In this document: piece after piece, positions 40,884 to 62,811 of the stretch
Layout of the letters: every line of letters starts with the position of its first letter
Numbering within the stretch: position 1 is the first letter of the stretch
DNA from: Candidatus Omnitrophota bacterium
Lineage (GTDB): Bacteria; Omnitrophota; Gorgyraeia; Zapsychrales; Zapsychraceae
NCBI GenBank assembly: GCA_020429915.1
Contig: JAGQKV010000026.1
Span: 2,217 to 66,216 of the forward strand
Direction: 5' to 3'
Length of the DNA: 64,000 nt
Translations under genes and position numbers: made by a program
The notes under the pieces: generated by a model
Database searches by the model: none
Seen by the model: the letters and a program-made list of their open reading frames with translations, nothing else
Told to the model about the DNA's origin: nothing

Positions 40884-40904
40884 ATTCATCTAAATTTGTC
40901 CACA

Positions 40905-40921
40905 GGTAGAAAAAAGTCAGT
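40905..40921 (+). promoter_or_regulatory. Copy 2 of the shared upstream motif GGTAGAAAAAAGTCAGT, followed by the direct repeat ATTTACATTAA twice
   Basis: 17/17 identity to 33962-33978. ATTTACATTAA occurs at 40939 and 40965. Confidence 0.35.
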
Positions 40922-41000
40922 TGAAAGGCGTTCGCCCTATTTACATTAATGGCTGAATGTGAGAGATTTACATTAAACCTGCCGCAAAGGAAAGGGACCG

Positions 41001-41729
41001 ATGATGCTCTCCGAAGAAATCCTGGTTATTGATGACGATGACCGCGTCATTAAAAGTCTGAAGGTGGCCTTGCTGGAATACCGGATAACGGCCTTCATTC
41101 GCGGTCGGGAGGCGTTGACTTATTTGCGCAAACCCAATCTGATCCATTTGGTCCTGCTGGACGTGATGATGCCCGACATGGACGGGCTGTCCGTTCTGAG
41201 AGAAATCAAGGCCATCAACAGGGACATCGGTGTGATCATGATGACCGGTTACGGCTCCAAAGACGTGATTATCGAGGCCTTGCGGTTGCATGCGGATGAC
41301 TTTGTCGAGAAGCCCTTTGAGATCGAAGACATCAAGGCGAAGATCCGGACCGTCCTGCAGGAAAAAGTCAGCGATCCGCGGCATCAGGATGACGTCAACG
41401 GTCACCTCAGGAGGATTAAGAGTTTTGTTCGCCGTGATCCGAAGAACGCGTCGCTGGAATTGATCGCCGAACAAATGCAACTCAGTCCGCGGTACATCAG
41501 CCGGATGTTCATCAAGCACAACGGCGAGAGCTTTCGGGAATACAAAATGAAGATCAAGATGGAAAAGGCCCGCGAATTACTGACCCGGTCGCGTCTGTCC
41601 ATCAATGAAATAGCGATTAACCTCGGATATCAGAACGGAGAGTCATTCATGCGGTTGTTCAAGCGTGAGAATGCCATGACCCCCACCCAGTACCGGAGCA
41701 ATTACGGAGGCGGTAAACGCGGACAATGA
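41001..41729 (+). CDS. Response regulator with AraC-type HTH output domain
   Basis: Receiver motifs LVIDDDD, LLDVMMPDMDG, MMTG, VEKPF. The C-terminal INEIAINLGYQNGESFMRLFKRENAMTPTQYR is an HTH_AraC. Confidence 0.85.
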   Translation: MMLSEEILVIDDDDRVIKSLKVALLEYRITAFIRGREALTYLRKPNLIHLVLLDVMMPDMDGLSVLREIKAINRDIGVIMMTGYGSKDVIIEALRLHADDFVEKPFEIEDIKAKIRTVLQEKVSDPRHQDDVNGHLRRIKSFVRRDPKNASLELIAEQMQLSPRYISRMFIKHNGESFREYKMKIKMEKARELLTRSRLSINEIAINLGYQNGESFMRLFKRENAMTPTQYRSNYGGGKRGQ

Positions 41730-42133
41730 ATCCAACCCTGGAGCACATAATTTTGATCATCGATGCGCATCCGGTGTACGCGCTGAAATTGGAGGGTTTC
41801 CTGCGGGGGTTGACCTTTCGCCATATATCGCTGACGGAAAACGGCGGCGCCGGGATCGAAGCCGCGCGCGGGGACAAACCCGGTTTGGCGCTGGTCAGCG
41901 GCATGCTTCCGGATATGGACGCGACGGAATGCTGCCGGCAAATCCGCGCCGTGAGTCCTGCGACCAGGATTATTGTGCAGACCGGTCTTTTTACCGAAGA
42001 TGCGCAGATCGGGGCCCTGCGCGACAGCGGGGCCGATCATGTACTGCCGCGTCGGGAAAAGGACTGGTCGCCGCTGCAACGTGCCGTGGAAGATTGTCTC
42101 GGATTGCCCGCTGGTTCGCAAAAATCCGGCTGA
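41726..42133 (+). CDS. Atypical receiver-domain protein (pseudo-receiver with Ser in place of the phospho-acceptor Asp)
   Basis: Receiver fold (ILIIDAH...LALVSGMLPDMDA...IIVQTG), but the D57-equivalent is Ser (LVS) and the D13-equivalent is Ala. The ATGA start overlaps the upstream RR stop. Confidence 0.6.
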   Translation: MNPTLEHIILIIDAHPVYALKLEGFLRGLTFRHISLTENGGAGIEAARGDKPGLALVSGMLPDMDATECCRQIRAVSPATRIIVQTGLFTEDAQIGALRDSGADHVLPRREKDWSPLQRAVEDCLGLPAGSQKSG

Positions 42134-42152
42134 ACGGAGATGCCCTATTGTG

Positions 42153-42587
42153 ATGGAATCCTCGGATACCGTCATCCAACGGACCAGGCGCAATATTCTG
42201 GTGGTTGATGACGACGAACTTATGCGTAGAACTCTGCAGCGACTGCTGATGCTGCAACGGCATTATGATGTGCGGTGTCTGGCTGACGGGGCGCTGGTCA
42301 TGGACGAGATCCGGCAGTGGCGTCCGCATCTGATCGTGTTGGATACCCGGATGACGGGCAAGGACGGCCTGACGGTCTGCCGGGAAATACGGCAGGATGC
42401 CCGTCTGGACGAGATCCGCATCATCGTCCTGTCCGGGGCCCTTGATCAGGACCTCGAACACGTCGTGCTGGCCGCCGGTGCCGACGCCTATTTTGAGAAA
42501 CCGTTCGACAGTCAAGCGTTGTTATCAGCCATTAGAAACTTGGTTTTTCCTGACAATCCGGACCGCCCGCCGGCGACCGCAGAGTAA
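42153..42587 (+). CDS. Single-domain CheY-like response regulator
   Basis: LVVDDDE, LIVLDTRMTGKDG, IIVLSG, YFEKPF. A start at 42153 is preferred over the track start at 41973. Confidence 0.75.
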   Translation: MESSDTVIQRTRRNILVVDDDELMRRTLQRLLMLQRHYDVRCLADGALVMDEIRQWRPHLIVLDTRMTGKDGLTVCREIRQDARLDEIRIIVLSGALDQDLEHVVLAAGADAYFEKPFDSQALLSAIRNLVFPDNPDRPPATAE

Positions 42588-42597
42588 AAGTTAATCC

Positions 42598-42765
42598 GTG
42601 ACAGATGTGCCCCCCGATTCCCTGGTCATTCAAATCGAACCGGGCTCCGCTCCGGCCGAAGAGATCGCGTCATTACTGATCGATGTGTCGCGCCTGTACC
42701 GCTTGTGCGGCGGCAGCGGTCTTGGCTTTGAGGCCGGGACCGGATCAATAACCGAAGGTGAATAA
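42598..42765 (+). CDS. Possible 55-aa small protein (GTG start)
   Basis: Protein-like translation ...EEIASLLIDVSRLYRLCGGSGLGFE, packed between the RR stop and the next ATG. Speculative. Confidence 0.2.
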   Translation: MTDVPPDSLVIQIEPGSAPAEEIASLLIDVSRLYRLCGGSGLGFEAGTGSITEGE

Positions 42766-42767
42766 GT

Positions 42768-43175
42768 ATGAAAAATAACGGCATTCGATTTACGGCCCGG
42801 CCGGTTGCCGCCGGGGTGCGGGAAACCGAAACGTGGCACAGTTTCCGAAAGTGGTTCGTCCGGTCGCTGGAGTACCAGGCTACCCGCCGGCCGTACGGAT
42901 TGCGCGCGGACCGGAGGTCTTCCTCCGGCGGCGATGAAGACCGGGAGCGGTCGGAGGTGATCGTGCGGGAGGCGTGCGCGGCTGTGGCCGGCATCGAATC
43001 TCTGGAGAACGGAAATATCCGGCCGGTCCTTGACATCCGCCGCGCGCGGCAGATCGAGGTGGATATGAATGCCGCCGTCGACAGGCAGTTGACACAGATC
43101 GCGCGTTATCTGGACTATCTGGAGGATTGCTACGGGGTCCGCGTCGCGTTTCGCAACGGATGTGACGATGGGTGA
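42768..43175 (+). CDS. Hypothetical protein (135 aa)
   Basis: RBS GAAGGTGA upstream. Its stop overlaps the start of the next ORF. The antisense ORFs here are R/P-rich junk. Confidence 0.35.
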   Translation: MKNNGIRFTARPVAAGVRETETWHSFRKWFVRSLEYQATRRPYGLRADRRSSSGGDEDRERSEVIVREACAAVAGIESLENGNIRPVLDIRRARQIEVDMNAAVDRQLTQIARYLDYLEDCYGVRVAFRNGCDDG

Positions 43176-43575
43176 GTGTCTGTGGTGGGCCGCCGGCAGC
43201 GGCATCTTCGGGGTGATCGCGGGATTTCTGGGCGCGCGGTGGTGGCGGCAGCGGGCGTTGAGGCGCCGGCGCCGCGCCCGCAAGTTGATCCGGGGGCTGG
43301 ACCATCCCGCAGCGGCTTCCCGTGACCGGACGCCGTCGCCGGTTTCGCGGCCGGCCGTCACGGACACAGAACCCGCGTACGAATATCTGCTCGACATTAT
43401 GCTGGGCGGCGGGCTCAACCTTTTGCGGGAGGCCATGACGTCGCTGATCAATCGCTATGCCGCCGAGGGCTGGAGCTTCTATACGATCAGCAGTGATTTT
43501 AAGGGAGCGGGCGGCTGCTGGATCGTCTTCCGGCGCCGGCGGGAGTCCGGCAAGCGGGGGGAAGATGGTGAATAA
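43162..43575 (+). CDS. Hypothetical membrane-anchored protein (137 aa)
   Basis: N-terminal TM helix LWWAAGSGIFGVIAGFLGA followed by an Arg-rich stretch. Overlapping start and stop suggest translational coupling. Confidence 0.35.
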   Translation: MTMGECLWWAAGSGIFGVIAGFLGARWWRQRALRRRRRARKLIRGLDHPAAASRDRTPSPVSRPAVTDTEPAYEYLLDIMLGGGLNLLREAMTSLINRYAAEGWSFYTISSDFKGAGGCWIVFRRRRESGKRGEDGE

Positions 43576-43999
43576 AGGTTCGGCCATATCAAAGATGGAG
43601 CTCGCCGTCATGGTATTGGCGGCCGCGGGTCTCCTGGGCGCATCGGCGTATTTCCTGTTTCCCGACTCTATGCCGTCCGGCGGTACGGTCGATGCGAAGA
43701 TGAAGGCCGGGCAGCGCCGCACCGTCCCCGCCCTCTTGCGGGATGCCTACCGGGACTACAACCAGACCGTTAACAGCAACCGGGACACTTACGGTGTGTT
43801 GTACTATCCCTGTCCCGCCGGGTACGACTGCCGCGGTTTGATCCCGCCGGAATTATTGTTGCCCGCCGACGAGGTTGTCTTCGACTATTGCGGCGGAGAC
43901 CGCGAAGAATGCCTTATCCTCGCCATCGATATGCTGATCCGGTCGGGGATTGAGGATGTTGAGGCGTACCTCGCGGACCGGGGCGCGGCCGAAGGCTAG
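43565..43999 (+). CDS. Hypothetical membrane-anchored Cys-containing extracytoplasmic protein (144 aa)
   Basis: Internal start MVNKGS with RBS GGGGGAAG. TM helix LAVMVLAAAGLLGASAYFLF, then YYPCPAGYDCRGL...DYCGGDREECL. Confidence 0.4.
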   Translation: MVNKGSAISKMELAVMVLAAAGLLGASAYFLFPDSMPSGGTVDAKMKAGQRRTVPALLRDAYRDYNQTVNSNRDTYGVLYYPCPAGYDCRGLIPPELLLPADEVVFDYCGGDREECLILAIDMLIRSGIEDVEAYLADRGAAEG

Positions 44000-44126
44000 T
44001 CGGGGGAAGGGCAGCGACTAGCGGAAAGCGGCCAGGGAAGAGAAAGGGATCAGTGGATAGGAGATAGTGGGATTAGTGAACAGGAGGGGGTTAGTAAAAA
44101 GATTCATGAAAGAACTAACCGCTAAC

Positions 44127-45109
44127 TGTGTTATTCCAGGACATCGGTAACAGATTTAAAATAGTTGATTCTGCGCTGAACCGGTGTCAGGCCCTTTAGA
44201 CTTAAGTGAGGGCGATTAAAATTATAGTGTTGAACGAAGGCATCAAGAACCTGTGAGCGATGAAGACTATTGCGCAAGCGGATACGATTATAGCACTCAT
44301 CATCAATGGTTCTAAAAAAGCGCTCAACTTTGCCATTTGTTTCAGGATGATACGGTCGCAAAAGGTAATGCCGAATGCCTAAATCCCGGCACGTTTGGGC
44401 GAATAAAGTTAAACGACTGGCATGAGCGGCATAGCGCATCGAAAAACAAAAAGCATTATCGGTTAACACGGCCTTAACAGGATAATTGTAGTATTCTAAG
44501 GCCAAATATAAAAAATCTGTGGCCGCACGAGTAGTTGCGGCCGGATAAATGCGACAGAAAGCTTCTCTGGAGTAATCATCCAGAATAGCAAACTGATGCT
44601 CTTTGGGATGTCCTCGACGTAGCGGAACAAGCGTTTTAGTATCCAGATGTAAGAGTTCACCGGGATAAGTTTTTTCATATCGCTGGGGCTTCTTCCTCGG
44701 TTTTTTCGGCTGCAGGTACTGGAGGCCTTGCCGGCAAAGCGTACGATAAACGCTGCTGTGGCTTAAACCCAAACGTAATGCAATGCGAGCTGGGCCGATC
44801 TTCTCCTTTACTCGCAGGGATATGATCTGTTGTATGACATGATCCGATAATGCGCCAGGCGAATTCTGGGGCCGGGTAGAATGATCCTCAAGTCCCTCGA
44901 TGCCCAGTTTCTGATACCGATTTAACCATTTATAGATGGTCTTTCGGCTTAAATCAAAGAGCTTAGCGATATCGGTGACAGAATTACCGTTATTAATTAA
45001 TTCGATGCACCGTAACTTGACTTTACGTGATATTCGGGAATTCATCGGACACCCTCCTTTGGTGCAATTCTACCAAAGAAATGTGTTACCGATGTCCTGA
45101 AACATCACA
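44127..45109. mobile_element. Intact IS481-family insertion sequence (about 983 bp) with about 31-bp imperfect terminal inverted repeats (TGTG...CACA) and a 6-bp target site duplication GCTAAC
   Basis: Left end TGTGTTATTCCAGGACATCGGTAACAGATTT versus the reverse complement of the right end TGTGATGTTTCAGGACATCGGTAACACATTT. GCTAAC lies at 44121-44126 and 45110-45115. Confidence 0.8.
44131..45045 (-). CDS. IS481-family DDE transposase (HTH + rve integrase core)
   Basis: N-terminal HTH (VTDIAKLFDLSRKTIYKWLNRY) and an rve core with the DDE context LHLDTK...LTDNAFCF...HPETNGKVERF. Confidence 0.9.
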   Translation of the reverse strand: MNSRISRKVKLRCIELINNGNSVTDIAKLFDLSRKTIYKWLNRYQKLGIEGLEDHSTRPQNSPGALSDHVIQQIISLRVKEKIGPARIALRLGLSHSSVYRTLCRQGLQYLQPKKPRKKPQRYEKTYPGELLHLDTKTLVPLRRGHPKEHQFAILDDYSREAFCRIYPAATTRAATDFLYLALEYYNYPVKAVLTDNAFCFSMRYAAHASRLTLFAQTCRDLGIRHYLLRPYHPETNGKVERFFRTIDDECYNRIRLRNSLHRSQVLDAFVQHYNFNRPHLSLKGLTPVQRRINYFKSVTDVLE

Positions 45110-45233
45110 GCTAACCCCTAGTCCCGGGAGGGCGCTCCCTAAACACTCGCCGCTCATCGCTAACCGCTAGTATACAGTGTATCGGCGCCCATGGAGCTCT
45201 AACCATGCAGATTATCCATAATCTGGTACAATA

Positions 45234-46238
45234 ATGATCATGCCTAAAAGCCCATCCGAGACACGCGGCTATCCGGCACTGCTAAGAACATTGCGCGCCG
45301 AGGTCGCGTCGGCCAAAAGCGATATTGCGCGGCGCACCGTCGTGCTCTATTGGACGGTGGGCCGGCACATCAATCAGTTTCTTTCCTCGCAACCCGCGGA
45401 CGGTTCCTACCGGCGCGGGTTTTTTCATGGGTTGAGCGAGGACTTGGGCATCGATACCCGGACTTTATACCACGCGTCTTTGTTTGAACGGACATACCCC
45501 AAGCTCGACGCCAAGCTTGATTTGAGCTGGTCGCATTACCGCTATCTCTGCCAGCTGCCCACCGCTGCCGAGCGCCGCCGCTGGGAACGGCGCATTATTA
45601 AAGAGAAGATCAGTTCCCGCGACCTGTTGGCCTTGATGCATGAGGGCGAAACAGACATGCCCGGCGGAACGCTGGCAGAACCGGTGCGCGGACAGCTGTA
45701 CCATTACCGCCTGATCAAGAGCAGCAAGCTGGTGACCGGGCCTGATGTGATGCTGGTCGATTGCGGCTTCGAGAATTGCGTGGACGTCCCGCAGGCATCC
45801 GTCCGGCTGAACAACACGCACGTGTACCGGTCGGACAAACAGGACGGCGTCTACACGTTAAAGGCATCGAAGGTGACGCGCGACCGGCTGTACACGTACA
45901 AAGCCTATGTCGAGCGCGTGATCGACGCCGACACGCTGAAGGTGATCGTCGACTGCGGCTTCGGCATCCGCCACCGCCAGACCGTCCGGCTGAAAGGCAT
46001 CGACGCCCCCGAGCTCAAGACCATCCCAGGCACCCGCGCCGCCGCCTGGGTCAAAAACCAACTCAAAGAATGCCCCTTCATCATCCTGCGCACCCACAAG
46101 ACGGATAAGTATGCGCGGTATTTGGGGGATGTGTTTTATTTGGCGCATGAGCAAGACGCGGATGTGGTGGTGGCTCAGGGAGATTATCTGAATGGGGGGA
46201 TGGTGGAGATTGGTCATGCGCAGATATGGGAAAAGTAA
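45234..46238 (+). CDS. Fusion protein: DUF1016 (YhcG N-terminal-like) domain plus staphylococcal-nuclease-like (SNase/thermonuclease) domain
   Basis: N-terminal half RRTVVLYWTVGRHINQFL...FFHGLSEDLGIDTRTLYHASLFERTYP resembles YhcG_N. C-terminal half VIDADTLKVIV...VRLKGIDAPE...DKYARYLGDVF resembles the SNase fold. Confidence 0.7.
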   Translation: MIMPKSPSETRGYPALLRTLRAEVASAKSDIARRTVVLYWTVGRHINQFLSSQPADGSYRRGFFHGLSEDLGIDTRTLYHASLFERTYPKLDAKLDLSWSHYRYLCQLPTAAERRRWERRIIKEKISSRDLLALMHEGETDMPGGTLAEPVRGQLYHYRLIKSSKLVTGPDVMLVDCGFENCVDVPQASVRLNNTHVYRSDKQDGVYTLKASKVTRDRLYTYKAYVERVIDADTLKVIVDCGFGIRHRQTVRLKGIDAPELKTIPGTRAAAWVKNQLKECPFIILRTHKTDKYARYLGDVFYLAHEQDADVVVAQGDYLNGGMVEIGHAQIWEK

Positions 46239-46287
46239 CAAATAAATCGTATTGAAACAATAAAAGGAAATCAGAAAGGTTCAACGC

Positions 46288-47094
46288 ATGGTACGTATTC
46301 CCAAGAAAGTATCTGAACGGTTAAAGAAGGAAATGAGCAGATTTCAAAAGATTCTCAAGAAGGCCAAGGATCGGGATGTTAATGAGTCTGATACGGTGAC
46401 GATCATCACGGATATGTTGGCTGAAGTCTTTGGGTATGACAAATACTCCGAAATTACAAGCGAACAGGCTATAAGAGGGACTTATTGTGACTTGGCTATA
46501 AAGTTAGACGGAAAAATGAAGTTCTTGATTGAGGTTAAGGCCATCGGTCTCAATCTAAAGGATAATCATCTCCGGCAAGTTATCGGCTACGGGGCCACGA
46601 ACGGCATCCCGTGGGTTGTCCTGACAAATGGTATAGAGTGGCAGATATATCGCATCAAGTTTGAGAAACCGGTAAACTACGAATTGGTGTTTACACTTAA
46701 TTTTGCCGAAATAAGCACGCGTAAGCAGGAAGACCAGGACAAGGCATTTTTGCTATGTAAAGAAGGCCTTGAAAAGGCCGCCATTGAGGAATTTCATGAT
46801 CATGTGCAGAGTGTGAACAGATTTATGATCGGGGCAATTTTGCAGTCGGATACAGTGATATCCGTCATTAGACGAGAGTTGCGCAAGATGACCGATGGTG
46901 TGCGAGTCAAGGATGACGAAATTAGACGGATTTTGATTGAGGAGGTGCTTAAACGGGATACGGTGCAGGGTGAAATGGTAAAAGACGCGATGTCCAAGAT
47001 AAAGAAGGCTCATAAAAAGAAAGTTAAGAAAGCATCGAGGCGTAAGAAAATTGTGGCATCGGAGGAGCCTCAGCCTGATATTGAGCAAGGTTAA
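46288..47094 (+). CDS. HsdR_N-like / Mrr-like PD-(D/E)xK restriction-endonuclease-fold protein with a Lys-rich C-terminal tail
   Basis: YCDLAIKLDGKMKFLIEVKAIG...QVIGYGATNGIPWVVLTNGIEWQIY matches the D...(E/I)xK...Q..Y...TNG pattern of the type I R-subunit N-terminal nuclease domain. Confidence 0.6.
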   Translation: MVRIPKKVSERLKKEMSRFQKILKKAKDRDVNESDTVTIITDMLAEVFGYDKYSEITSEQAIRGTYCDLAIKLDGKMKFLIEVKAIGLNLKDNHLRQVIGYGATNGIPWVVLTNGIEWQIYRIKFEKPVNYELVFTLNFAEISTRKQEDQDKAFLLCKEGLEKAAIEEFHDHVQSVNRFMIGAILQSDTVISVIRRELRKMTDGVRVKDDEIRRILIEEVLKRDTVQGEMVKDAMSKIKKAHKKKVKKASRRKKIVASEEPQPDIEQG

Positions 47095-47124
47095 GATTGT
47101 TTCCGGAAGGTCTGTTTACGTATT

Positions 47125-47844
47125 ATGGCAATATCAAATAGTCTCACATGGATTAAGAATGTTGTCGAATGCACGGACACACCTGCGGGTCGACGTTTTG
47201 ACCTGTTCATTCAGTTCTTAATAATTTTGTCGATTGTGACATTTTCAATCGAAACCTTGCCGAATCTTGGTCAGCCAGTCAAGGCTGTCCTGCGCTACAT
47301 TGAAGTCGCCGTAGTGCTTGTATTTACTATGGAATATGCTCTGCGCATTTTAGTGTCTGGCCACAAGATAAGATTTATCTTCAGCTTTTTCGGATTGGTG
47401 GATTTTCTGGCGATTTTGCCATTCTATTTAGCCTTGGGGATAGATTTGAGGGCCATCCGGGCGCTGCGATTGTTTAGGCTTGTTTGGTTGATGAAGTTGG
47501 CACGATATGGCCGGGCAATAGAGCGTTTTCGGAAGGCCTTTGAGATTGCCAAGGAAGAAGTTGCCCTATATTTGATGTTCACTTTGATCCTGTTGTTCCT
47601 ATCTAGTGTCGGTATTTATTATTTTGAACACGATGCTCAACCGGATGAATTTCAGTCCGTGTTCCATGCAATGTGGTGGGCCGTTGCTACGCTTTCTACG
47701 GTGGGATATGGGGATATTTATCCGGTGACAGCCGGAGGGAAGGTGTTTACGTTTTTTGTCCTAATTTTGGGATTGGGGATTGTCTCGGTGCCATCGGGGT
47801 TGATTGCATCAGCGTTGATGCGAGTAAAGTCGGAAGAGTTGTAG
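47125..47844 (+). CDS. Minimal 6-TM voltage-gated potassium channel (Ion_trans; S4 voltage sensor plus GYGD selectivity filter)
   Basis: S4 RAIRALRLFRLVWLMKLARY with Arg at every third position. Pore TLSTVGYGDIYP. 239 aa, ending right after S6. Confidence 0.85.
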   Translation: MAISNSLTWIKNVVECTDTPAGRRFDLFIQFLIILSIVTFSIETLPNLGQPVKAVLRYIEVAVVLVFTMEYALRILVSGHKIRFIFSFFGLVDFLAILPFYLALGIDLRAIRALRLFRLVWLMKLARYGRAIERFRKAFEIAKEEVALYLMFTLILLFLSSVGIYYFEHDAQPDEFQSVFHAMWWAVATLSTVGYGDIYPVTAGGKVFTFFVLILGLGIVSVPSGLIASALMRVKSEEL

Positions 47845-47947
47845 GCGGTTGCAAAATGAAGCCGCTTTAAAGAAAAGCGTTCTTTTTCAGCTTGGATGGT
47901 TATTGCAACTATTATCGACTAGAACAGTAACAGTCTAAAGCATACAT

Positions 47948-48631
47948 TTGGAGGTGCAAATGGGACCAAACAGGATTATGGTATTTTATGATGGTGGATT
48001 CTTTAGGCATGGTCAAATTTACTTTAATTATAATGAGGGTCGTGGGTGGTTCAGTTTGCCACAACTACACATAACATTAGAAAAGTACGTGGCCAGTAAG
48101 ATCAAAACGCCTGTTGAAATTACTAAAGTCGTTGGGGCACACTATTATGATGGTAGACCTTCTACAAATGTGGCAGACTCGGATAGTTTAGAGAAAGATC
48201 GTAAATTTGAAATGAGCCTTATATCTGCGGGTGTGGTGCCACATTATTTAGCCCTTAGTGAGAAATTAAAAGGCTCGCCACCAGAAGAGTCATATTATTT
48301 GATGCAAAAGGGTGTGGATGTAAAGCTTGCATTGGATGCATTAGATTTTGCTCATGACAATAGATTTGACGTAGCGGTATTAATTGCAGGAGATGGCGAT
48401 TTTGTACCACTTGTTCGGAAGGTTACCTCCTTGGGTAAGCAGGTTCTGGTGGCCTATTTCGAATTCGATTCATGGAAGGACAACATAGGAAAGAATCATA
48501 AACCATGCTATGTATCACGAGAACTGATTGATGCTGCCACAGCATCACTAAACTTTAATCAATTAGTTAAGGATCGAGATTGGAAGAGTGAGATACGATC
48601 ATTGTTCTTTAAACCAAAAACTTCTGAGTGA
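47948..48631 (+). CDS. NYN-domain (LabA/YacP-like) putative ribonuclease
   Basis: IMVFYDGGFF...GVDVKLALDALDFAHDNRFDVAVLIAGDGDFVPLVRKVTSLGKQV matches the NYN signature. Confidence 0.75.
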   Translation: MEVQMGPNRIMVFYDGGFFRHGQIYFNYNEGRGWFSLPQLHITLEKYVASKIKTPVEITKVVGAHYYDGRPSTNVADSDSLEKDRKFEMSLISAGVVPHYLALSEKLKGSPPEESYYLMQKGVDVKLALDALDFAHDNRFDVAVLIAGDGDFVPLVRKVTSLGKQVLVAYFEFDSWKDNIGKNHKPCYVSRELIDAATASLNFNQLVKDRDWKSEIRSLFFKPKTSE

Positions 48632-48850
48632 CGACTTTGAACAGAACTCGAAGAATGTAGATATAAATTGTGCCAATAATAATAGGGGCCCTAATAAAAT
48701 CCGGGCACCGAAAAAAATAGATACCAAATATTACAGGGCAATCTGGAATCTTTGTTTACGGGTCCATTGACATTTTCTCATTAGAATTGGCTCCTTTCCT
48801 TGGAGCTCAATTCTACACAATTTACTCACTTGCACTCAAGAATATTTGAA

Positions 48851-49008
48851 AATCAGGGGACACAATACCTATATCCGTCAGTGCCGGGATGATTGTGTCA
48901 GAGGGTTACCAATAACAATCTGCAATCTATAATTAAAGTACTCCAAAATCCAAAATCGGGGGACACAATACCTATTTCGCGCGAGTTAAGTATTGTGTCC
49001 CCTGATTT
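48851..49008. repeat. Three copies of the element AATC(A/G)GGGGACACAATAC(C/T)T: two direct copies 100 bp apart, plus an inverted copy forming a 13-bp perfect hairpin with copy 2
   Basis: Copies at 48851-48870, 48953-48973 and, inverted, 48990-49008. Hairpin GGGGACACAATAC ... GTATTGTGTCCCC. Confidence 0.5.
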
Positions 49009-49052
49009 CCTGATTTTAGGAGTTGTGGAGTAAACAGTGAGAGGGTGAATTT

Positions 49053-49589
49053 ATGGATAAGAAAATCTTGATAGAAAAGTATTTTCAGATAGTCGTAGAT
49101 AAATTCTCTCAGTATATGGAGAGTAACGATTTTCTGTTAGAAACAAGGGAAATACAAAACAACTCGGCGCAAGTAGTTTTTCGCAGCGGAAGCCGTTATG
49201 TGAAACTGCTTATGAACCTCGACGAGAGAGATGGGCCGAACTACTTCAATATAGTCCTGGGTGAGGGCTTATCAACATATCCTGAAGCAGATTGGAACTC
49301 CATAGCATTATGGAAACTTATGGAGTCTCATAGCCATGATAATGTCGGCGAATATGCTATAAGATTGACGGATGTGAAGGATGTTGAAAAAGTTATTGAT
49401 TTGGGATTGCAGGATTTAGAGGGTTACGGAAACGAATTTATGTGCGGAAAGATATCAACATTTCGGAAAGTGCGAGGAAAATTAAACAGGGATAGGGAGC
49501 CATATATTATTCATAAGTTTGATAAAGATAAAGGCCGAGTTTCGGTTGTTGATCCCGAGTCCGAGAGGTTGCGAAAGAAGTTTAGTTGA
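49053..49589 (+). CDS. Hypothetical protein (178 aa), low GC, unknown function
   Basis: AT-rich ORF on the same strand as the upstream nuclease/channel genes. No recognisable motif. Confidence 0.5.
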   Translation: MDKKILIEKYFQIVVDKFSQYMESNDFLLETREIQNNSAQVVFRSGSRYVKLLMNLDERDGPNYFNIVLGEGLSTYPEADWNSIALWKLMESHSHDNVGEYAIRLTDVKDVEKVIDLGLQDLEGYGNEFMCGKISTFRKVRGKLNRDREPYIIHKFDKDKGRVSVVDPESERLRKKFS

Positions 49590-49730
49590 AGAAAAAATAG
49601 TGCCGTTTTCATAAGGCCCCCAAGAGCAATTCTTTATAGTATAAATCAATCGTAGTAAATGAATTAATTCATAAACCTAAGCCGTTCTCTTTCTCGTCTC
49701 TATCCGCTAAACGCTATCCGCTGAATTCGA

Positions 49731-50240
49731 TTAGAACAATGTCCCCACGGTCTTCATCGGCAGAAAAAGGCGTAAGGGTTGATCGGGGAAGGGGATGAAG
49801 CCGAATTTCAGGTAGAATCCGGCGGCCTTCTCATGGAGGGCATCGACGACCACGGCCATCGATCCGATTTGCTCTGACTGGTAGTAACTTCGCCTTAAGG
49901 CATCAATCAAAAGGCGTGGTCCTAATCCCCGCCCCGCGCAGCGTTGATCCACGGCCAACCGGCCCAGCAGGGTTGCCGGTTTGAGCTTATACGGCGACAG
50001 TTTCAGTTTCTTCAAGACCTCCGCAGAAAAATCCTCTCTGGGGACATGGAGCGCCGACAGGGTATAGTATCCCCGGACGCGACCGTCCTCATCACAATGG
50101 ACGAACACGGCTGTTTCTTTGCGTTCCATATCCAGGCGGGCGTATTTGTGCAGATAATCATTCAGGACCGGTTCAATGCAGGAAAAGGATTTTCTGTCAT
50201 GCCGTTTGTGCAGCGGCTCGGTGAGAAACTCCCCCGGCAT
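49731..50240 (-). CDS. GNAT-family acetyltransferase toxin (TacT/KacT/AtaT-like) of a type II TA system
   Basis: GNAT core LGRLAVDQRCAGRGLGPRLLIDAL. The gene sits immediately downstream of and abutting a DUF1778 gene. Confidence 0.8.
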   Translation of the reverse strand: MPGEFLTEPLHKRHDRKSFSCIEPVLNDYLHKYARLDMERKETAVFVHCDEDGRVRGYYTLSALHVPREDFSAEVLKKLKLSPYKLKPATLLGRLAVDQRCAGRGLGPRLLIDALRRSYYQSEQIGSMAVVVDALHEKAAGFYLKFGFIPFPDQPLRLFLPMKTVGTLF

Positions 50241-50507
50241 TCAGGAAACGACTTTCCGGTAATCTTGGGCGGCCTTTTTCAGGGCCTTGTTCGGCGCAGG
50301 CGGGTTGAGGAGGGCTTCAATAAAAACCTTTTGATCATTTTCACTCATGGCGAGCTCTTGGTGGCGCTGAATAATGTGGGCCGCTTCTTTGTCGGCGGCC
50401 GATGTGACGAACTCCGTTACTGAGGCAAAATTCCCCAGCGCGGCGGCCCGTGCGTAGAGCTTCTTTTTTTCTTCCGTGATCCTCGTATCCAGGCGGGCTT
50501 TTTTCAT
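50241..50507 (-). CDS. DUF1778 (RHH) antitoxin, TacA/KacA-like
   Basis: 88 aa, MKKARLDTRITEEKKKLYARAAALGNFASVTEFV, typical of the DUF1778 family. It lies upstream of the GNAT toxin. Confidence 0.8.
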   Translation of the reverse strand: MKKARLDTRITEEKKKLYARAAALGNFASVTEFVTSAADKEAAHIIQRHQELAMSENDQKVFIEALLNPPAPNKALKKAAQDYRKVVS

Positions 50508-50518
50508 AGTTCAAGTGT

Positions 50519-50550
50519 ACAACATATGTACGTACAAGTCAATGCCGGGG
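50519..50550. promoter_or_regulatory. Imperfect palindrome immediately upstream of the antitoxin start (candidate TA autoregulatory operator)
   Basis: TTCAAGTGTACAACATATGTACGTACAAGTC, with inverted TGTAC/GTACA half-sites around a central ATAT. Confidence 0.45.
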
Positions 50551-50562
50551 GGCAGCGGTTAG

Positions 50563-50710
50563 CGTATAGCGGCTAGCGGTTAGTCTCAGGCAGCGTCATT
50601 TGCGTTTAGGGCTAAGCGGTTAGTTTTCCCGGTTTGGTTCTTCACTGAATCCTCTATCCACTATTTTCTATGCACTCTCTATTCGCTAGCCGCTATACGC
50701 TAATCGCTGG
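50563..50710. repeat. Long imperfect inverted repeat built from TAGCGGT-type heptamers (AGCGGTT AGCGTAT AGCGGCT AGCGGTT ... CGCTAGC CGCTATA CGCTAAT CGCT)
   Basis: The left arm at 50563-50634 and the right arm at 50684-50710 are reverse complements over about 27 nt. Confidence 0.6.
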
Positions 50711-50878
50711 AAATAAGAGCATATACACCACATCAAAACTGACGTATACTACGCTATATCAGCCTATAAACATCAAAATTGATGGGATGTGTTGTTCCAT
50801 GTGATATTGACGCAAGGCATCATATGTGATATATTATGGGCGTATATAAGTGTAATAAATCAATAATGAGGTCTTATT

Positions 50879-51229
50879 ATGGAATGGAAAGGGATGTCGG
50901 ATGAGGCAATTCTGGAGGAGATCGGGGGGCGGATCGCCCGCTACCGGTTGAACCGGAATATGACGCAGGCGGCCTTGGCGACCGAGGCGGGGGTGTCGGT
51001 GCCGACCGTCCAGCGCGCCGAGGCGGGGCGCTCGATTCAGGGGATGAAACTCGTGCGGATCCTGCGCGTTTTGGGCCTGCTCGAAAACCTGGAGGCGCTC
51101 ATCCCCGAACCGGCCGCCAGCCCGCTGCAGCAATGGCAACAGGACGGCCGTGTGCGTCAACGGGCCTCCGGTTCCGGCCAGCCATCCGCGGATGCCGATG
51201 AGGAATGGACCTGGGGAGACGACCAGTGA
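50879..51229 (+). CDS. XRE-family HTH protein (HipB-like antitoxin)
   Basis: HTH LNRNMTQAALATEAGVSVPTVQRAE. It lies immediately upstream of and overlaps the HipA-like gene. Confidence 0.7.
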   Translation: MEWKGMSDEAILEEIGGRIARYRLNRNMTQAALATEAGVSVPTVQRAEAGRSIQGMKLVRILRVLGLLENLEALIPEPAASPLQQWQQDGRVRQRASGSGQPSADADEEWTWGDDQ

Positions 51230-52527
51230 GTGTCGCCGAGGTGCGGCTGTGGGGCCGGGCGATCGGCGCCGTGGCCTGGGATGAGGCGCGGGGGACCGCG
51301 CACTTTGAATACACCCCGGCCTTCGCGCGCAGTGCCATCGAGGTTGCGCCGTTGATGATGCCGCTTAAAGAGGGGATCTATTCGTTTCCGTCGCTGGCCC
51401 GCGAATCCTTTCACGGCCTGCCGGGACTGCTCGCCGATTCCCTGCCCGATAAATTCGGCAACGCGTTGATCGATGCCTGGCTGGCCGCACAGGGCCGTAC
51501 GCCCGCGGGATTCAATCCGGTGGAACGCCTGTGCTATATCGGGACCCGCGGCATGGGGGCGCTGGAGTTTCAGCCGGCGCGGGCGCCGTTTCGCGCGAGC
51601 GGCGAACCGCTGGACATCGCCGCGCTGGTGGAGCTGGCCTCGGCGATCCTCACCCAACGCGATTCCTTCCACGGATCGTTCGCGTCAGATGAAAAGGGAC
51701 AGGCCCTGCGCGACATCCTGCGGGTCGGGACATCCGCCGGCGGGGCGCGGGCCAAGGCGGTCATCGCCTGGAATCCGGACACCAACCAGGTCCGCTCCGG
51801 ACAGGCCGCCTCCCGGGACGGATTTCAGCATTGGATCCTCAAGTTCGACGGGGTCACCGGCAACCGCGACAAGGAGCTCGACGATCCGGCGGGCTACGGA
51901 CTGATCGAATACGCGTACGCGCTGATGGCCGCCGCGGCCGGGATCCATATGAGCGAATGCCGCTTGCTGAAAGAAGGCGGGCGCAGCCACTTCATGACGC
52001 GCCGCTTCGACCGTACCGCAGACGGGCACAAGGTCCACATGCAGTCGCTGGGCGCGCTGGCGCATTTTGATTTCAACCGGGCCGGCGCCTATTCGTATGA
52101 ACAGGCCGTGCAGGTGATCCGGCGGCTGGGCCTGCCGATGAGCGCGGTGGAAGAGCAGCTACGCCGCGCGGCCTTTAACATCGTGGCCCGCAATCAGGAC
52201 GACCACGTCAAGAACATCGCCTTTCTGATGAACAAGGCCGGACAGTGGCGGCTGTCGCCGGCCTTCGATGTGATCTACAGCTACAACCCCGACGGGGACT
52301 GGACCGCGCGGCATCAGATGTCGTTTAACGGCAAACGCGACGGCTTCACCGCCGCGGACTTCACCGCCTTCGGACGGACGGCGTCGATGAAAAAGGGACG
52401 GGCCGAAGAGATCCTCGCCGAGGTCTCCGCCGCGGTCAAACGCTGGCCCGAATTCGCCGCCGCGGCCGGGGTGGATGAGCGCACGGCGGGGAGGATCGGG
52501 AAGGCGCACCGGAAAATCAGCGGTTAG
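51205..52527 (+). CDS. HipA-family serine/threonine kinase toxin
   Basis: HipA C-terminal motif DDHVKNIAFLMNKAGQWRLSPAFDVIYS plus a HipA N-terminal-like region. A GTG start at 51226 overlapping the hipB stop is an equally likely start. Confidence 0.85.
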   Translation: MDLGRRPVSVAEVRLWGRAIGAVAWDEARGTAHFEYTPAFARSAIEVAPLMMPLKEGIYSFPSLARESFHGLPGLLADSLPDKFGNALIDAWLAAQGRTPAGFNPVERLCYIGTRGMGALEFQPARAPFRASGEPLDIAALVELASAILTQRDSFHGSFASDEKGQALRDILRVGTSAGGARAKAVIAWNPDTNQVRSGQAASRDGFQHWILKFDGVTGNRDKELDDPAGYGLIEYAYALMAAAAGIHMSECRLLKEGGRSHFMTRRFDRTADGHKVHMQSLGALAHFDFNRAGAYSYEQAVQVIRRLGLPMSAVEEQLRRAAFNIVARNQDDHVKNIAFLMNKAGQWRLSPAFDVIYSYNPDGDWTARHQMSFNGKRDGFTAADFTAFGRTASMKKGRAEEILAEVSAAVKRWPEFAAAAGVDERTAGRIGKAHRKISG

Positions 52528-52675
52528 CGTTTAGCGGTTAGGGAATAGAAAGTGAACATACGGTATCAGAACGCCTCAATCCCAAATCTTGCGCAAGACA
52601 GGGGTTCAAGTTTTTGCGGGCCGGCGCGGGGTCGAAATAGTTGACAGGTGAACTAACAGGTGATAATCTTGAAAC

Positions 52676-53377
52676 ATGTCCGTCGCCGTTAGTCCCAAGA
52701 AGATTATTCAAATCCTGATTCTCATTGCCGGTATCGGTTATTGCTGGAACGCCCTGCCGCATTCAATGGTGTGGGCGGACCTGAAGGCCAAGTTTCACGA
52801 TCCCACCGCTAACCTGGACATCCGTCCGGGGGACATCATTTTTCAGGACATCCACGGCAAGCTTTTTCGCGTGATCGAAGACGTCTCGGGCAGCCGCCTG
52901 ACGCATTGCGGGATCGTGGTCCGGCATGACGGCGATCTTTATGTGCTGGAGGCCATCGGCCCGGTGATGCTGACGCCGCTGAAGGCGTGGGTCCACCGCG
53001 GGATCGGCAGCCGTTTCGCCGTGGTGCGGCTGAAGGCGCCGTACCGGTCGCACGTCCCGGCGATCATCCGCGCCGGGTATGCCTACCTGAGCAAACCGTA
53101 TGACTTCCAGTATGAGATGACCGACGACAAGATCTACTGTTCGGAGCTGGTATACAAGGCGGTGGAGACCGCCACCGGCATCCGGCTCGGTCCGCTGCGC
53201 CGACTGGGTGATCTGAAGTGGCAGGGCCACGAAGCCTTTATCCGGGCGATGACCGGCGGGGAATTGCCGTTGGACCGCAAGATCATCACGCCCGGCGATC
53301 TGGCCGCATCCGATAAAGCGGATGTCGTCTTCTCAAACTTTATACACACCCCATCACGCAAAAAGATTCTCCGATAG
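52676..53377 (+). CDS. YiiX-family (DUF830) permuted papain-like putative hydrolase
   Basis: GDIIFQD...LTHCGIVV...DKIYCSELVYKA, with an N-terminal TM/signal. Confidence 0.65.
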   Translation: MSVAVSPKKIIQILILIAGIGYCWNALPHSMVWADLKAKFHDPTANLDIRPGDIIFQDIHGKLFRVIEDVSGSRLTHCGIVVRHDGDLYVLEAIGPVMLTPLKAWVHRGIGSRFAVVRLKAPYRSHVPAIIRAGYAYLSKPYDFQYEMTDDKIYCSELVYKAVETATGIRLGPLRRLGDLKWQGHEAFIRAMTGGELPLDRKIITPGDLAASDKADVVFSNFIHTPSRKKILR

Positions 53378-53570
53378 TTTTCCGTCCCGCCTTTCCCGGT
53401 TCACTCCGGTAATTTGATTGAATCCGCAAAATAAGAATATGTTGAACTAACTGTTTTCTCGGTAAGTAAAGGTGATACAATACCTCATGGCTCCGGGAAA
53501 GTCATAATCCCGCTCGCGTCCCAGCTTCGGTTAACGGTGTTGTCGCCTTTCCGTCATAGCCCCGGGGGAA

Positions 53571-54185
53571 ATGTCCGTTCATCTCAAAATTGCGATGAAG
53601 ACACGACTCGGCTTATTGCCCATTCTGTTAGCTGTTTTCCTAAGCTGTCCCGCCGTCTGCCCGGCGCAAGAATATCTTCCCGCCAAGGTATCCGCCGCCC
53701 TAATATTTAAAATCCTGACCTACGACCGGTCATTGCCGGAACGTTTCGGCAAGGAGGTACGTATTGGTGTCCTGTATGACCGGCAGCAGTCCGCGGAGGA
53801 GGCATTTGCCCGCGAATTTATCGAAGGTATGCAGGCCGGGGCGGCCAAGTTCAAATCCGACGGGCTTACCGCACGTGTTGAAAAGCTGGCGTACGACGGG
53901 GGGATTTCTCCGGACGAAGTGGCGGCCCTTATTCGTGAGCAGAATATCGGTGTGATCGTCACCCTTAGTAACGATGGGGCGGTCTTGCGGGACGTGGCGG
54001 CCGCCACCCGTGCGGCCAAAGTGAATTCCGTCTGCTTGCAGCAGGGGTGCCTCGATCACGGGATCGCGTTCGGTGTGCTGATCAAGGGCGCCAAGCCAAA
54101 GATGTTTGTGAATGTCCCGCGGACGCGGGAGGAAGGCAGCAATTACAGCAGCAAGTTATTGACGCTCTGCGAGAAAGTCAATTGA
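53571..54185 (+). CDS. Periplasmic DUF4154/YfiR-like protein
   Basis: Signal peptide, then KVSAALIFKILTYDRSLP, which resembles the DUF4154 family. It sits directly upstream of a sensor kinase. Confidence 0.5.
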   Translation: MSVHLKIAMKTRLGLLPILLAVFLSCPAVCPAQEYLPAKVSAALIFKILTYDRSLPERFGKEVRIGVLYDRQQSAEEAFAREFIEGMQAGAAKFKSDGLTARVEKLAYDGGISPDEVAALIREQNIGVIVTLSNDGAVLRDVAAATRAAKVNSVCLQQGCLDHGIAFGVLIKGAKPKMFVNVPRTREEGSNYSSKLLTLCEKVN

Positions 54186-54195
54186 TGGCCAAGAG

Positions 54196-55752: not shown

Positions 55753-55788
55753 AAGATATCGAGAAACACTTAACAATCGGAGAGCCCC

Positions 55789-62635: not shown

Positions 62636-62797
62636 GCGGATAGCGTCTAGCGGTTGGGGTTGAGTAAGGGGGCAGCAATTAGGAAACAGTGAAATTGGGG
62701 AATAAACATTCCAGCCTCGTCAGTACTAACCACTCATCCCTAACCCCGAAATGGTGCCTCCTGAAACTAACCGCTAGCCGCTAAACGCTAACCGCTA
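62636..62797. repeat. Inverted pair of TAGCGGT-type heptamer repeats (GCGGATAGCGTCTAGCGGTTGGGGTT ... AACCGCTAGCCGCTAAACGCTAACCGCTAG)
   Basis: The arms flank about 100 nt. Related short copies occur at 45145-45170, 49699-49723 and 52518-52543. Confidence 0.6.
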
Positions 62798-62811
62798 GAA
62801 ATAAGTGCATC

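Follow-up and report, generated by a model that had tools for sequence, protein, structure and literature searches.

A minimal voltage-gated-type K+ channel on a horizontally acquired islet and its recurrent, facultative pairing with a restriction-like nuclease gene

Why does a voltage-gated K+ channel gene lie among genes for nucleases, and does it travel with them? This question is raised by a 64,000-nucleotide stretch of DNA from a Candidatus Omnitrophota bacterium (assembly GCA_020429915.1, contig JAGQKV010000026.1, positions 2,217 to 66,216 of the forward strand), hereafter called the window, in which the gene of a minimal K+ channel (47125..47844) directly follows an HSDR_N-like gene, i.e., a gene for a protein of restriction-nuclease type (46288..47094). 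A sequence-only reading of this DNA had singled out the channel for its minimal build and for its position inside an AT-rich, nuclease-rich operon, which it considered atypical for a housekeeping channel. For twenty years, structural work has relied heavily on prokaryotic voltage-gated K+ channels. Those with six transmembrane helices (6-TM) and an S4 segment are widespread and laterally transferred, their role is unknown or dispensable, knocking them out produces no phenotype, and there is no study of any of them in its natural context (PMC2234077). We report here that the channel of the window is, by itself, a new yet ordinary representative of a known kind, that it reached this genome horizontally, and that its association with the HSDR_N-like gene is real and apparently undescribed.

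The open reading frame (ORF) at 47125..47844 (+ strand) starts with ATG, encodes 239 amino acids (aa) and is almost certainly a genuine 6-TM Kv-type K+ channel, as judged from Pfam, from sequence matches in the PDB and from Foldseek. It matches the Pfam profile Ion_trans (PF00520) over aa 24-237 (profile positions 3-239 of 241; E 3e-35, 122 bits for a cut-off of 25), with Ion_trans_2 as second match. A single-chain AlphaFold2 (AF2) model, built from an alignment of 32 family sequences (31 homologues and the window's protein) and reaching a pLDDT of 77, places S1 at about aa 20-43, S2 at 50-77, S3 at 81-97, S4 at 108-128, the S4-S5 linker and S5 at 130-167, the pore helix at 179-191 and S6 at 203-238. 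The S4 voltage-sensor helix (RAIRALRLFRLVWLMKLAR; aa 109-127, nucleotides (nt) 47449..47505, + strand) carries the basic residues R109, R112, R115, R118, K124 and R127. These residues are invariant among the 32 aligned sequences, as are F67 and E70 in S2, D93 in S3 and the K+ selectivity filter TVGYGD (aa 192-197, nt 47698..47715, + strand); the conserved S2, S3 and S4 residues align with the S2/S3/S4 region of Kv1.3 and Kv2.1. With the AF2 model as query, Foldseek retrieved the transmembrane domains of Kv1.2, Kv1.3, Kv2.1, Kv4.2 and Shaker (probability 1.0, E 6e-10 to 1e-7); the TM-score is no higher than about 0.5, as sensor and pore have no certain mutual orientation in the monomer model. 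The PDB sequence search gave Kv1.3, Kv2.1 and Kv4.2 as best matches (about 1e-25, 92 bits), then full-length KvAP (1orq/2a0l/6uwm; about 1e-19, 72 bits) and MlotiK1 (1e-16). The protein ends 9 residues past the S6 helix and has no C-terminal or cytoplasmic domain. It is thus a predicted minimal voltage-gated K+ channel, made only of the sensor (S1-S4) and the pore (S5-P-S6), and presumably assembles as a tetramer. The architecture announced by the sequence-only reading, i.e., a full set of S1 to S6, an S4 with an arginine at every third position, the TVGYGD filter and an end right after S6, was therefore borne out in every part.

The minimal build, on the other hand, turned out to be no peculiarity. 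At E < 1e-10, the channel has more than 6,800 homologues; the best 120 of them measure 231-308 aa, mostly 231-260, and are about 57-66% identical to the window's protein. Their hosts include Planctomycetota, Gammaproteobacteria (Legionella and Vibrio parahaemolyticus among them), KSB1, Calditrichia and Thermodesulfobacteriota. All 32 aligned sequences end without a C-terminal domain. The short form is the norm of a large, conserved bacterial family of about 235 aa, present across many phyla, of which we found no characterised member. The identical protein is recorded as an "ion transporter" of a Candidatus Omnitrophica metagenome-assembled genome (MAG); the contexts of this exact protein (P0001), on many contigs, all belong to one population, are always the same and are uninformative. 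When we sought a general conserved partner of the family in 80 loci from reference genomes encoding its members (channel-centred set), clustering of the three neighbours on each side yielded only lineage-specific housekeeping synteny (Obg, hpt-adk, purK, thyA/folA, pstABC). What we found is very nearly the widely conserved housekeeping clade to which the sequence-only reading had opposed its own idea, with about 60-65% identity across phyla and housekeeping surroundings, except that one link, with the HSDR_N-like gene, recurs. As for the setting, the copy of the window does lie in a horizontally acquired, mobile or defence-like region; in the reference genomes, the family mostly resides among housekeeping genes.

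The HSDR_N-like gene (46288..47094, + strand) ends 30 nt 5' of the channel gene and encodes a protein of 268 aa matching the Pfam families HSDR_N_2 (PF13588; 28.7 bits, cut-off 25), HSDR_N and MmeI_N. An N-terminal restriction endonuclease (REase)-like domain is followed by a C-terminal helical domain, whose fold is unmatched, and by a Lys-rich disordered tail. The PD-(D/E)xK motif, D68...E82-x-K84, is invariant in an alignment of 26 sequences. Foldseek matches of the AF2 model (pLDDT 81) are weak (E at least 0.03) and consistently REase-like (DrdV, Cas4, EcoT38I, the HsdR N-domain); the C-terminal half had no match, and a PDB profile search with the whole protein gave nothing. No helicase/ATPase domain (ResIII) was matched within the 268 aa, and no gene for a methyltransferase (MTase) or specificity subunit (hsdM/hsdS) lies within 40000-56000. 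The protein is therefore predicted to be a stand-alone member of the PD-(D/E)xK nuclease fold. It belongs to a large family of stand-alone proteins of about 265 aa, of which JGI annotates the homologues as "predicted type IV restriction endonuclease".

Do these two genes meet elsewhere? An HSDR_N-like homologue was found in 2 of the 80 channel-centred reference loci. Starting from the other gene, we examined 80 metagenome loci centred on HSDR_N-like homologues, 62 of them with at least 500 bp downstream, and found a same-strand downstream 6-TM K+ channel in six (L146, L092, L110, L116, L113 and L138). A search with a hidden Markov model detected 7 channel ORFs in these six loci, i.e., around 20 per Mb of flank. 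As a control, 1.27 Mb of channel-centred flanks contained one true extra channel, a tandem duplicate (L055 9121-10813, a Methanothrix MAG with two tandem Kv-type channel genes), the other matches being split fragments of the central gene. The channel density in the HSDR-centred flanks is thus about 25 times that of the control, and the Poisson probability of at least six such loci at the control rate is 4e-7. Immediate adjacency, counted five times among 156 loci, has a probability of 5e-4 to 9e-8 under a generous assumed channel frequency of 1/500 to 1/3,000 genes. Moreover, the channel is the sole recurrent +1 neighbour of the HSDR_N-like family, all other downstream genes being singletons. 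The channel-centred sets contributed the pairs of L041 and L259. A further locus, L084, found through its HSDR_N-like homologue, comes from a related species (72-76% nucleotide identity) and shows the order DUF1016-SNase, HSDR_N-like, channel. Both families also occur on IMG/VR contigs (44 loci for the channel, 76 for the HSDR_N-like family); in this viral set, L259 carries an HSDR_N-like gene (32% identical to that of the window) directly 5' of a channel, and L218 carries the two genes in convergent orientation. In plasmid records, the channel occurs 15 times and the partner 7 times (mostly in Leptospira weilii), never both in one record. Altogether, tight same-strand pairs exist in the window, L084, L041, L146, L092, L110, L116 and L259, and looser pairs in L113, L138, L064 and L218. 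We consider it very probable that the linkage of Kv-type channels with the HSDR_N-like gene is non-random.

The other genes around the channel behave differently. Neither the NYN gene nor orf178, which follow the channel in the window, nor TacT, HipA or a C92 peptidase was found in any of the 80 channel-centred loci, and the DUF1016-SNase fusion, which precedes the pair, was matched once, weakly and by its SNase part only. In the HSDR-centred metagenome loci, NYN gave one weak match out of 80. Over the 80 genome, 80 metagenome and 44 viral loci, none of these six genes co-varies with the channel. Hence, of the co-variation with neighbours that was to be looked for, the HSDR_N-like part alone was recovered. 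NYN, orf178 and DUF1016-SNase are bystanders, and the supposed nuclease-rich operon, which does contain three nuclease-type neighbours (DUF1016-SNase, HSDR_N-like and NYN), is therefore a mosaic and not a system.

The anatomy of the pairs indicates how they arose. All linked channels possess a full Ion_trans domain, an Arg-rich S4 and the filter T-x-[ST]-T-V-G-Y-G-D, and all linked partners keep the D...ExK motif. The channels nevertheless fall into three subtypes: those ending right after S6 (subtype 1: window, L084, L146, L041), those with a C-terminal CPHCG motif (subtype 2: L092, L259, L113, L138, L064) and those with a C-terminal tail of around 40 aa (subtype 3: L110, L116, L218). The gap between partner and channel is 30 nt in the window, 24 in L084, 25 in L110, around 40 in L092 and -4 (overlap) in L116; it is around -16 nt in L041, where the genes overlap and the partner is disrupted, and looser in L146 (212 nt) and L259 (at most 112 nt). 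In L041 (9208-9968, a Phycisphaerae MAG), the HSDR_N-like gene lacks residues around 79-101, including ExK, and its frame is changed, which reflects either a decaying cassette or an assembly error. On the partner side, the linked proteins form at least six sub-clusters when grouped at 65% identity, and relatives sharing 85-90% identity often have no channel beside them. Partner identity does not follow channel identity (Spearman -0.18, no co-phylogeny), and we thus rejected a module of single origin in favour of repeated assembly. The pairing was assembled and lost repeatedly, and this is the pattern expected if selection favours co-localisation, rather than that of one inherited operon. In conclusion, the nuclease and Kv pairing is a recurrent, facultative module, repeatedly built from different nuclease sub-clades and from three Kv subtypes.

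Nor is the pairing a rule within the tightly coupled subtype 3, an idea that we also rejected: close relatives carry a ComM-like AAA+ gene upstream instead. This is the case for the channel relatives of L116 (77-82% identity), whose nucleotide similarity to L116 is limited to the channel ORF. In L288 (2234-4753), L291 (2513-4789) and L294 (2363-4756), which represent three lineages and differ in their flanks beyond the pair, the subtype-3 channel lies 43-85 nt 3' of a ComM/YifB-like AAA+ gene of the Mg-chelatase family. Subtype 2 has its own features. Its channels end in a CPHCG/CPHCN zinc-ribbon-like motif, and in L113 (4191-5463), L138 (6454-7849) and L064 (9641-10798) a small, often Ser/Thr-rich (lipo)protein is encoded directly 5' of the channel. 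It bears a 'KYHLxxC...CxxC' motif (DUF5763 in L064) and may be a second recurrent partner of these channels. L113 also encodes, next to its HSDR_N-like gene, a 488-aa protein (2414-3880, - strand) in which a voltage-sensor domain (Ion_trans S1-S4, 4.8e-11) is fused to a CorA-like Mg2+ transporter domain (1.7e-28).

In the window, the pair lies at the left end of a low-GC islet of 3.4 kb (46239..49700; GC 0.41, against 0.56-0.58 in the flanks), which also contains NYN and orf178. GC falls from 0.587 to 0.435 precisely where the DUF1016-SNase gene reaches its stop codon and stays at 0.39-0.45 until about 49700 (HSDR_N-like 0.435, channel 0.451, NYN 0.394, orf178 0.393), so that the AT-rich setting first noticed from the letters was confirmed; in the related species of L084, it falls at the same point. 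We conclude that the channel reached this genome horizontally, on this islet. The GC anomaly is common to the two genes in the window, in L110 and in L041, where they lie in a lower-GC patch (0.55 vs 0.64), and this points to their co-transfer. Between the window (46288-47844) and L084 (3639-4817), synonymous sites are saturated in both genes (pS 0.81 for HSDR_N-like, 0.85 for the channel), and those of the adjacent DUF1016-SNase gene are not (pS 0.44, dN/dS 0.22); this suggests either that the cassette was swapped as a unit at a fixed site or that composition produces an artefact. Downstream, a terminator-like hairpin (CGCTTTAAAGAAAAGCG; 47863..47879, + strand) with a T-rich tail begins 19 nt past the channel stop codon. 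The scan that found it reports consensus matches only and gave 7 sites for 4.1 +/- 2.2 expected, so the hairpin alone is not significant; together with the short intergenic distance, it probably marks where an HSDR_N-like/channel transcription unit ends, and the two genes are probably co-transcribed up to this point.

The paired loci lie in mobile or defence-type surroundings. The pair adjoins integrase, excisionase and C5-MTase genes in L041, lies beside a phage tape-measure gene and prophage structural genes in L218, and is accompanied by XRE and type II MTase genes on the IMG/VR contig of L259, by XRE and a pentapeptide-TIR protein in L092, by a nearby HerA-like ATPase in L138, and by an insertion sequence (IS481) and the TacAT and HipBA modules in the window. 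The pentapeptide-repeat and TIR protein of L092 (6612-7694), directly 3' of the pair, has TIR-type matches in PADLOC (ThsB-like, SAVED-TIR). A descriptive Pfam census of 36 loci on IMG/VR contigs found the HSDR_N-like gene near 12 integrase/recombinase and 12 XRE/cI-type repressor genes, and integrase/repressor surroundings are the usual site of accessory exclusion genes. A comparison of defence-gene density between HSDR- and channel-centred loci was dropped as confounded, the loci with long flanks coming mostly from the viral collection.

What could such a pair do? Taken as a whole, we favour a facultative, horizontally moving cassette of a nuclease and a Kv channel, possibly serving phage exclusion, and regard this reading as coming somewhat short of an even chance. 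Within it, a role of the pair in conflict or defence is possible and still doubtful. More tentative yet is the specific proposal that the HSDR_N-like and Kv genes form an undescribed two-gene anti-phage cassette, of exclusion or abortive-infection type, in which the sensor would read the depolarisation of phage entry and the K+ flux would arrest the cell or license the nuclease. When a phage genome enters the cell, ions flow and the membrane depolarises (bioRxiv 10.64898/2026.01.24.701513). The channel, which would couple membrane voltage to K+ flux, could open upon this depolarisation and, once open, act as effector or amplifier through K+ loss, growth arrest or altered ionic conditions for the nuclease. 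The partner would be a restriction- or exclusion-type factor of the sort typical of prophage integrase-repressor regions.

Several observations weigh against this proposal. About 97% of the channel loci have no nuclease gene and about 90-95% of the nuclease loci have no channel, so that each protein clearly works alone; among the unpaired are the closest relative of the window's channel (P0002, 66% identity) and the closest relatives of its partner (L085-L091, 61-74% identity). In L041 the channel is intact while the overlapping partner is disrupted, and in the pairs of L113 and L138 the GC of one gene is unlike that of the other, with 1-2 kb between them. Beside the depolarising pores already known, a voltage-gated channel strictly selective for K+ makes a mild effector, and this one lacks any cytoplasmic domain that would give a soluble partner an obvious means of gating it. 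In PADLOC-DB v2.0 the channel has no match and the partner reaches only 17 bits against the PD-(D/E)xK model associated with DRT; the paired homologues at other loci have none, or weak matches to type IIG REases. Terminators and promoters were called by consensus match alone. Finally, our literature search for an account of the HSDR_N-like/Kv pairing, or of HSDR_N_2 function, found nothing relevant.

The first rival takes these points at face value. The channel would be an ordinary stand-alone K+ channel, serving membrane potential or K+ homeostasis, which landed in a variable region, and its adjacency to the nuclease gene would reflect shared cargo of mobile islands. The family is huge, conserved and mostly found in housekeeping synteny, both families are overwhelmingly unpaired, and both occur on IMG/VR contigs (44 and 76 loci) with no co-phylogeny; lateral transfer and unknown or dispensable roles are, moreover, documented for prokaryotic K+ channels (PMC2234077). 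However, shared cargo accounts poorly for the geometry of the pairs, since in all tight cases but one the channel is downstream on the same strand, often within 40 nt or with overlapping stop and start codons. It also leaves aside the roughly 25-fold enrichment over the control flanks and the fact that the channel is the only recurrent +1 neighbour, and three channel subtypes combined with at least six partner sub-clades are hard to obtain by chance co-residence. We therefore hold this explanation to be a real contender that is nonetheless unlikely.

A second rival keeps the pair functional and gives the HSDR_N-like protein another task, that of assisting or regulating the channel as its cytoplasmic subunit, sensing a ligand or nucleic acid, instead of acting as a defence nuclease. 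In other K+ channels, beta-subunits or RCK domains are such sensing modules, and here the channel is devoid of a cytoplasmic domain, the partner has a conserved C-terminal helical domain and a Lys-rich tail, the channel C-termini are acidic, and L116 and L041 show translational coupling. Yet at least about 90% of the partner genes have no nearby channel and about 97% of the channels no partner; partner and channel do not co-evolve either, and the invariant D...ExK argues for a predicted active nuclease. This makes the auxiliary-subunit explanation improbable.

According to a third, the cassette would serve the mobile element or prophage itself. The channel would alter the host membrane potential in the manner of the chlorovirus Kcv, for superinfection exclusion at entry or for lysis timing, and the nuclease would target host or competitor DNA. 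K+ channels of viruses have been described (PMC12332018), viral or prophage contigs carry members of both families (L218 lies by its tape-measure gene, L259 on an IMG/VR contig), and the HSDR_N-like family is found near integrase and repressor genes. However, the islet of the window has no flanking phage structural or integrase genes, and most members of the channel family sit in core-genome synteny, which leaves this idea with little to commend it, and a shade less than the preceding one.

The weakest of the alternatives, that DUF1016-SNase, HSDR_N-like, channel, NYN and orf178 together make up a single defence operon in which the channel is the membrane effector, could draw on their common strand, on three nuclease-type domains, on weak PADLOC candidate matches of DUF1016_N (PDC-S02) and NYN (HEC-09) and on the adjoining toxin-antitoxin (TA) modules, and is nevertheless largely refuted and very improbable, given that NYN, orf178 and the DUF1016-SNase fusion are absent from around 280 related loci, that DUF1016-SNase has the GC of the host and a different divergence history, and that a hairpin and long gaps lie between the channel and the genes NYN and orf178. 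Thus, the facultative nuclease and Kv cassette remains the reading that we prefer.

The neighbouring features of the window can be described briefly. At the left border of the islet, the DUF1016_N and SNase fusion (45234..46238, + strand; Pfam), conserved in position in the related species, has a host-like GC (0.587) and is therefore outside the AT-rich segment. The fusion of a YhcG-like N-terminal domain with a staphylococcal nuclease is unusual; its N-terminal part is the one matching the PADLOC candidate family PDC-S02. Further left, an IS481-family insertion sequence (44114..45122, - strand) encodes a transposase (44131-45045) between 44-nt terminal inverted repeats; it is strain-specific and is lacking in the syntenic region of L084, and a number of public contigs from the same population are interrupted at this point. 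Past the channel, the NYN-domain gene (47948/47960..48631, + strand; Pfam NYN 6e-16) follows after 115 nt with its own strong ribosome-binding site, and orf178 (49053..49589, + strand), for which no family match was obtained, follows after another 422 nt. One operon for the whole block is not established, because the hairpin follows the channel and because of these two gaps. The interval between NYN and orf178 contains, at 48841-49017, four copies of a motif of around 27 nt (AAAATCAGGGGACACAATACCTA), direct and inverted, which could form two hairpins; the AAAATCAGGGGACACAATACCTA repeats have no Rfam match. Other intergenic repeats, resembling repetitive extragenic palindromes (REP) or miniature inverted-repeat transposable elements (MITE) and rich in GCTAACCGCT/AGCGGTTAGC, lie at 45139-45168, 50553-50709 and 62721-62808 of the window and at 2430-2518 of L084, and the IS481 inverted repeat starts with a sequence resembling them. 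Right of the islet are two TA modules, the first with a GNAT toxin (TacT-like, 49731-50240) and its TacA antitoxin (50241-50507) on the - strand, the second with a helix-turn-helix (HipB-like) gene and HipA (50879-52527, + strand). No direct repeats or att-like sites were found flanking the islet, an Rfam search of 43000-51500 gave nothing, and the window contains no tRNA.

The association is relevant to the question of what purpose Kv channels serve in prokaryotes. A reproducible link, in mobile and prophage regions, of minimal Kv channels with a nuclease of restriction type would give rise to a testable hypothesis, that of voltage sensing in the conflict between cells and viruses. If the link is real, ion channels as immune effectors, such as those of Hailong and Chp1, would be extended to true voltage-gated K+ channels, and an anti-phage cassette, if true, would provide the first concrete biological role for prokaryotic Kv channels. 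Should the link be mere co-residence, what remains is a small genomic islet with an ordinary channel of a known family.

How does this pair compare with known systems? The channel shares with the KvAP/KvLm type the S1-S4 sensor and the S5-P-S6 pore, an arginine at every third S4 position, TVGYGD and little or no cytoplasmic domain. Compared with KvAP, it is slightly shorter, belongs to a separate and much larger bacterial family and scores better against eukaryotic Kv1, Kv2 and Kv4; of the 8 conserved sensor charges, KvLm retains only 3 (PMC2151562), whereas the window's channel keeps the full S4 charges as well as E70 in S2 and D93 in S3. E. coli Kch and Methanocaldococcus MVP are also 6-TM K+ channels with an S4-like helix, and the channel is an equivalog of neither: against Kch (6-TM plus RCK; NCBIfam NF007828) it reaches 40 bits for a cut-off of 425 and has no RCK/TrkA domain, and against the hyperpolarisation-activated MVP (NCBIfam NF040645) 59 bits for a cut-off of 300. 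On the nuclease side, the partner has in common with the stand-alone HSDR_N_2/COG2810 proteins, each a 'predicted type IV restriction endonuclease', the Pfam match, the REase fold and D...ExK, and differs from them by its extra conserved C-terminal helical domain and by its previously undescribed linkage with Kv channels. A survey of PD-(D/E)xK proteins classed the HSDR_N_2 family with the HsdR N-domains of EcoR124I (PMC3424549); with type I HsdR, the partner shares the N-terminal PD-(D/E)xK domain and has neither the superfamily 2 (SF2) helicase/translocase nor hsdM/hsdS.

Among immune effectors, Chp1, the CARF-pore protein of type III CRISPR, is a tetrameric pore that depolarises the membrane upon an infection signal (bioRxiv 10.64898/2026.08.05.743128). 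Like Hailong, it offers a precedent in concept for the proposed mechanism, although our proteins are unrelated to it. Chp1 responds to cyclic oligoadenylate through CARF, whereas the window's channel is devoid of a ligand-binding domain and voltage would be what opens it. The Hailong system, as summarised in section 14 of PMC13434031 (Tan et al. 2025) and in PMC13586616, combines HalA, a tetrameric ion-channel effector, with HalB, a nucleotidyltransferase producing oligo-dA. Judged against these summaries, our pair has no PADLOC or sequence relationship with Hailong: its partner has a PD-(D/E)xK REase fold of the HSDR_N_2/MmeI_N type, with no nucleotidyltransferase within the islet, and its channel combines a genuine voltage sensor with a K+ filter and is devoid of the cytoplasmic DNA-binding crown of HalA. 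The nuclease/Kv pairing is, in addition, facultative. What it would share with Hailong, again as the latter is summarised there and by analogy only, is the design of a two-gene cassette, found on mobile elements, in which a tetrameric K+-channel-like membrane protein, the shown or proposed membrane effector, is joined to an enzyme acting on nucleic acids.

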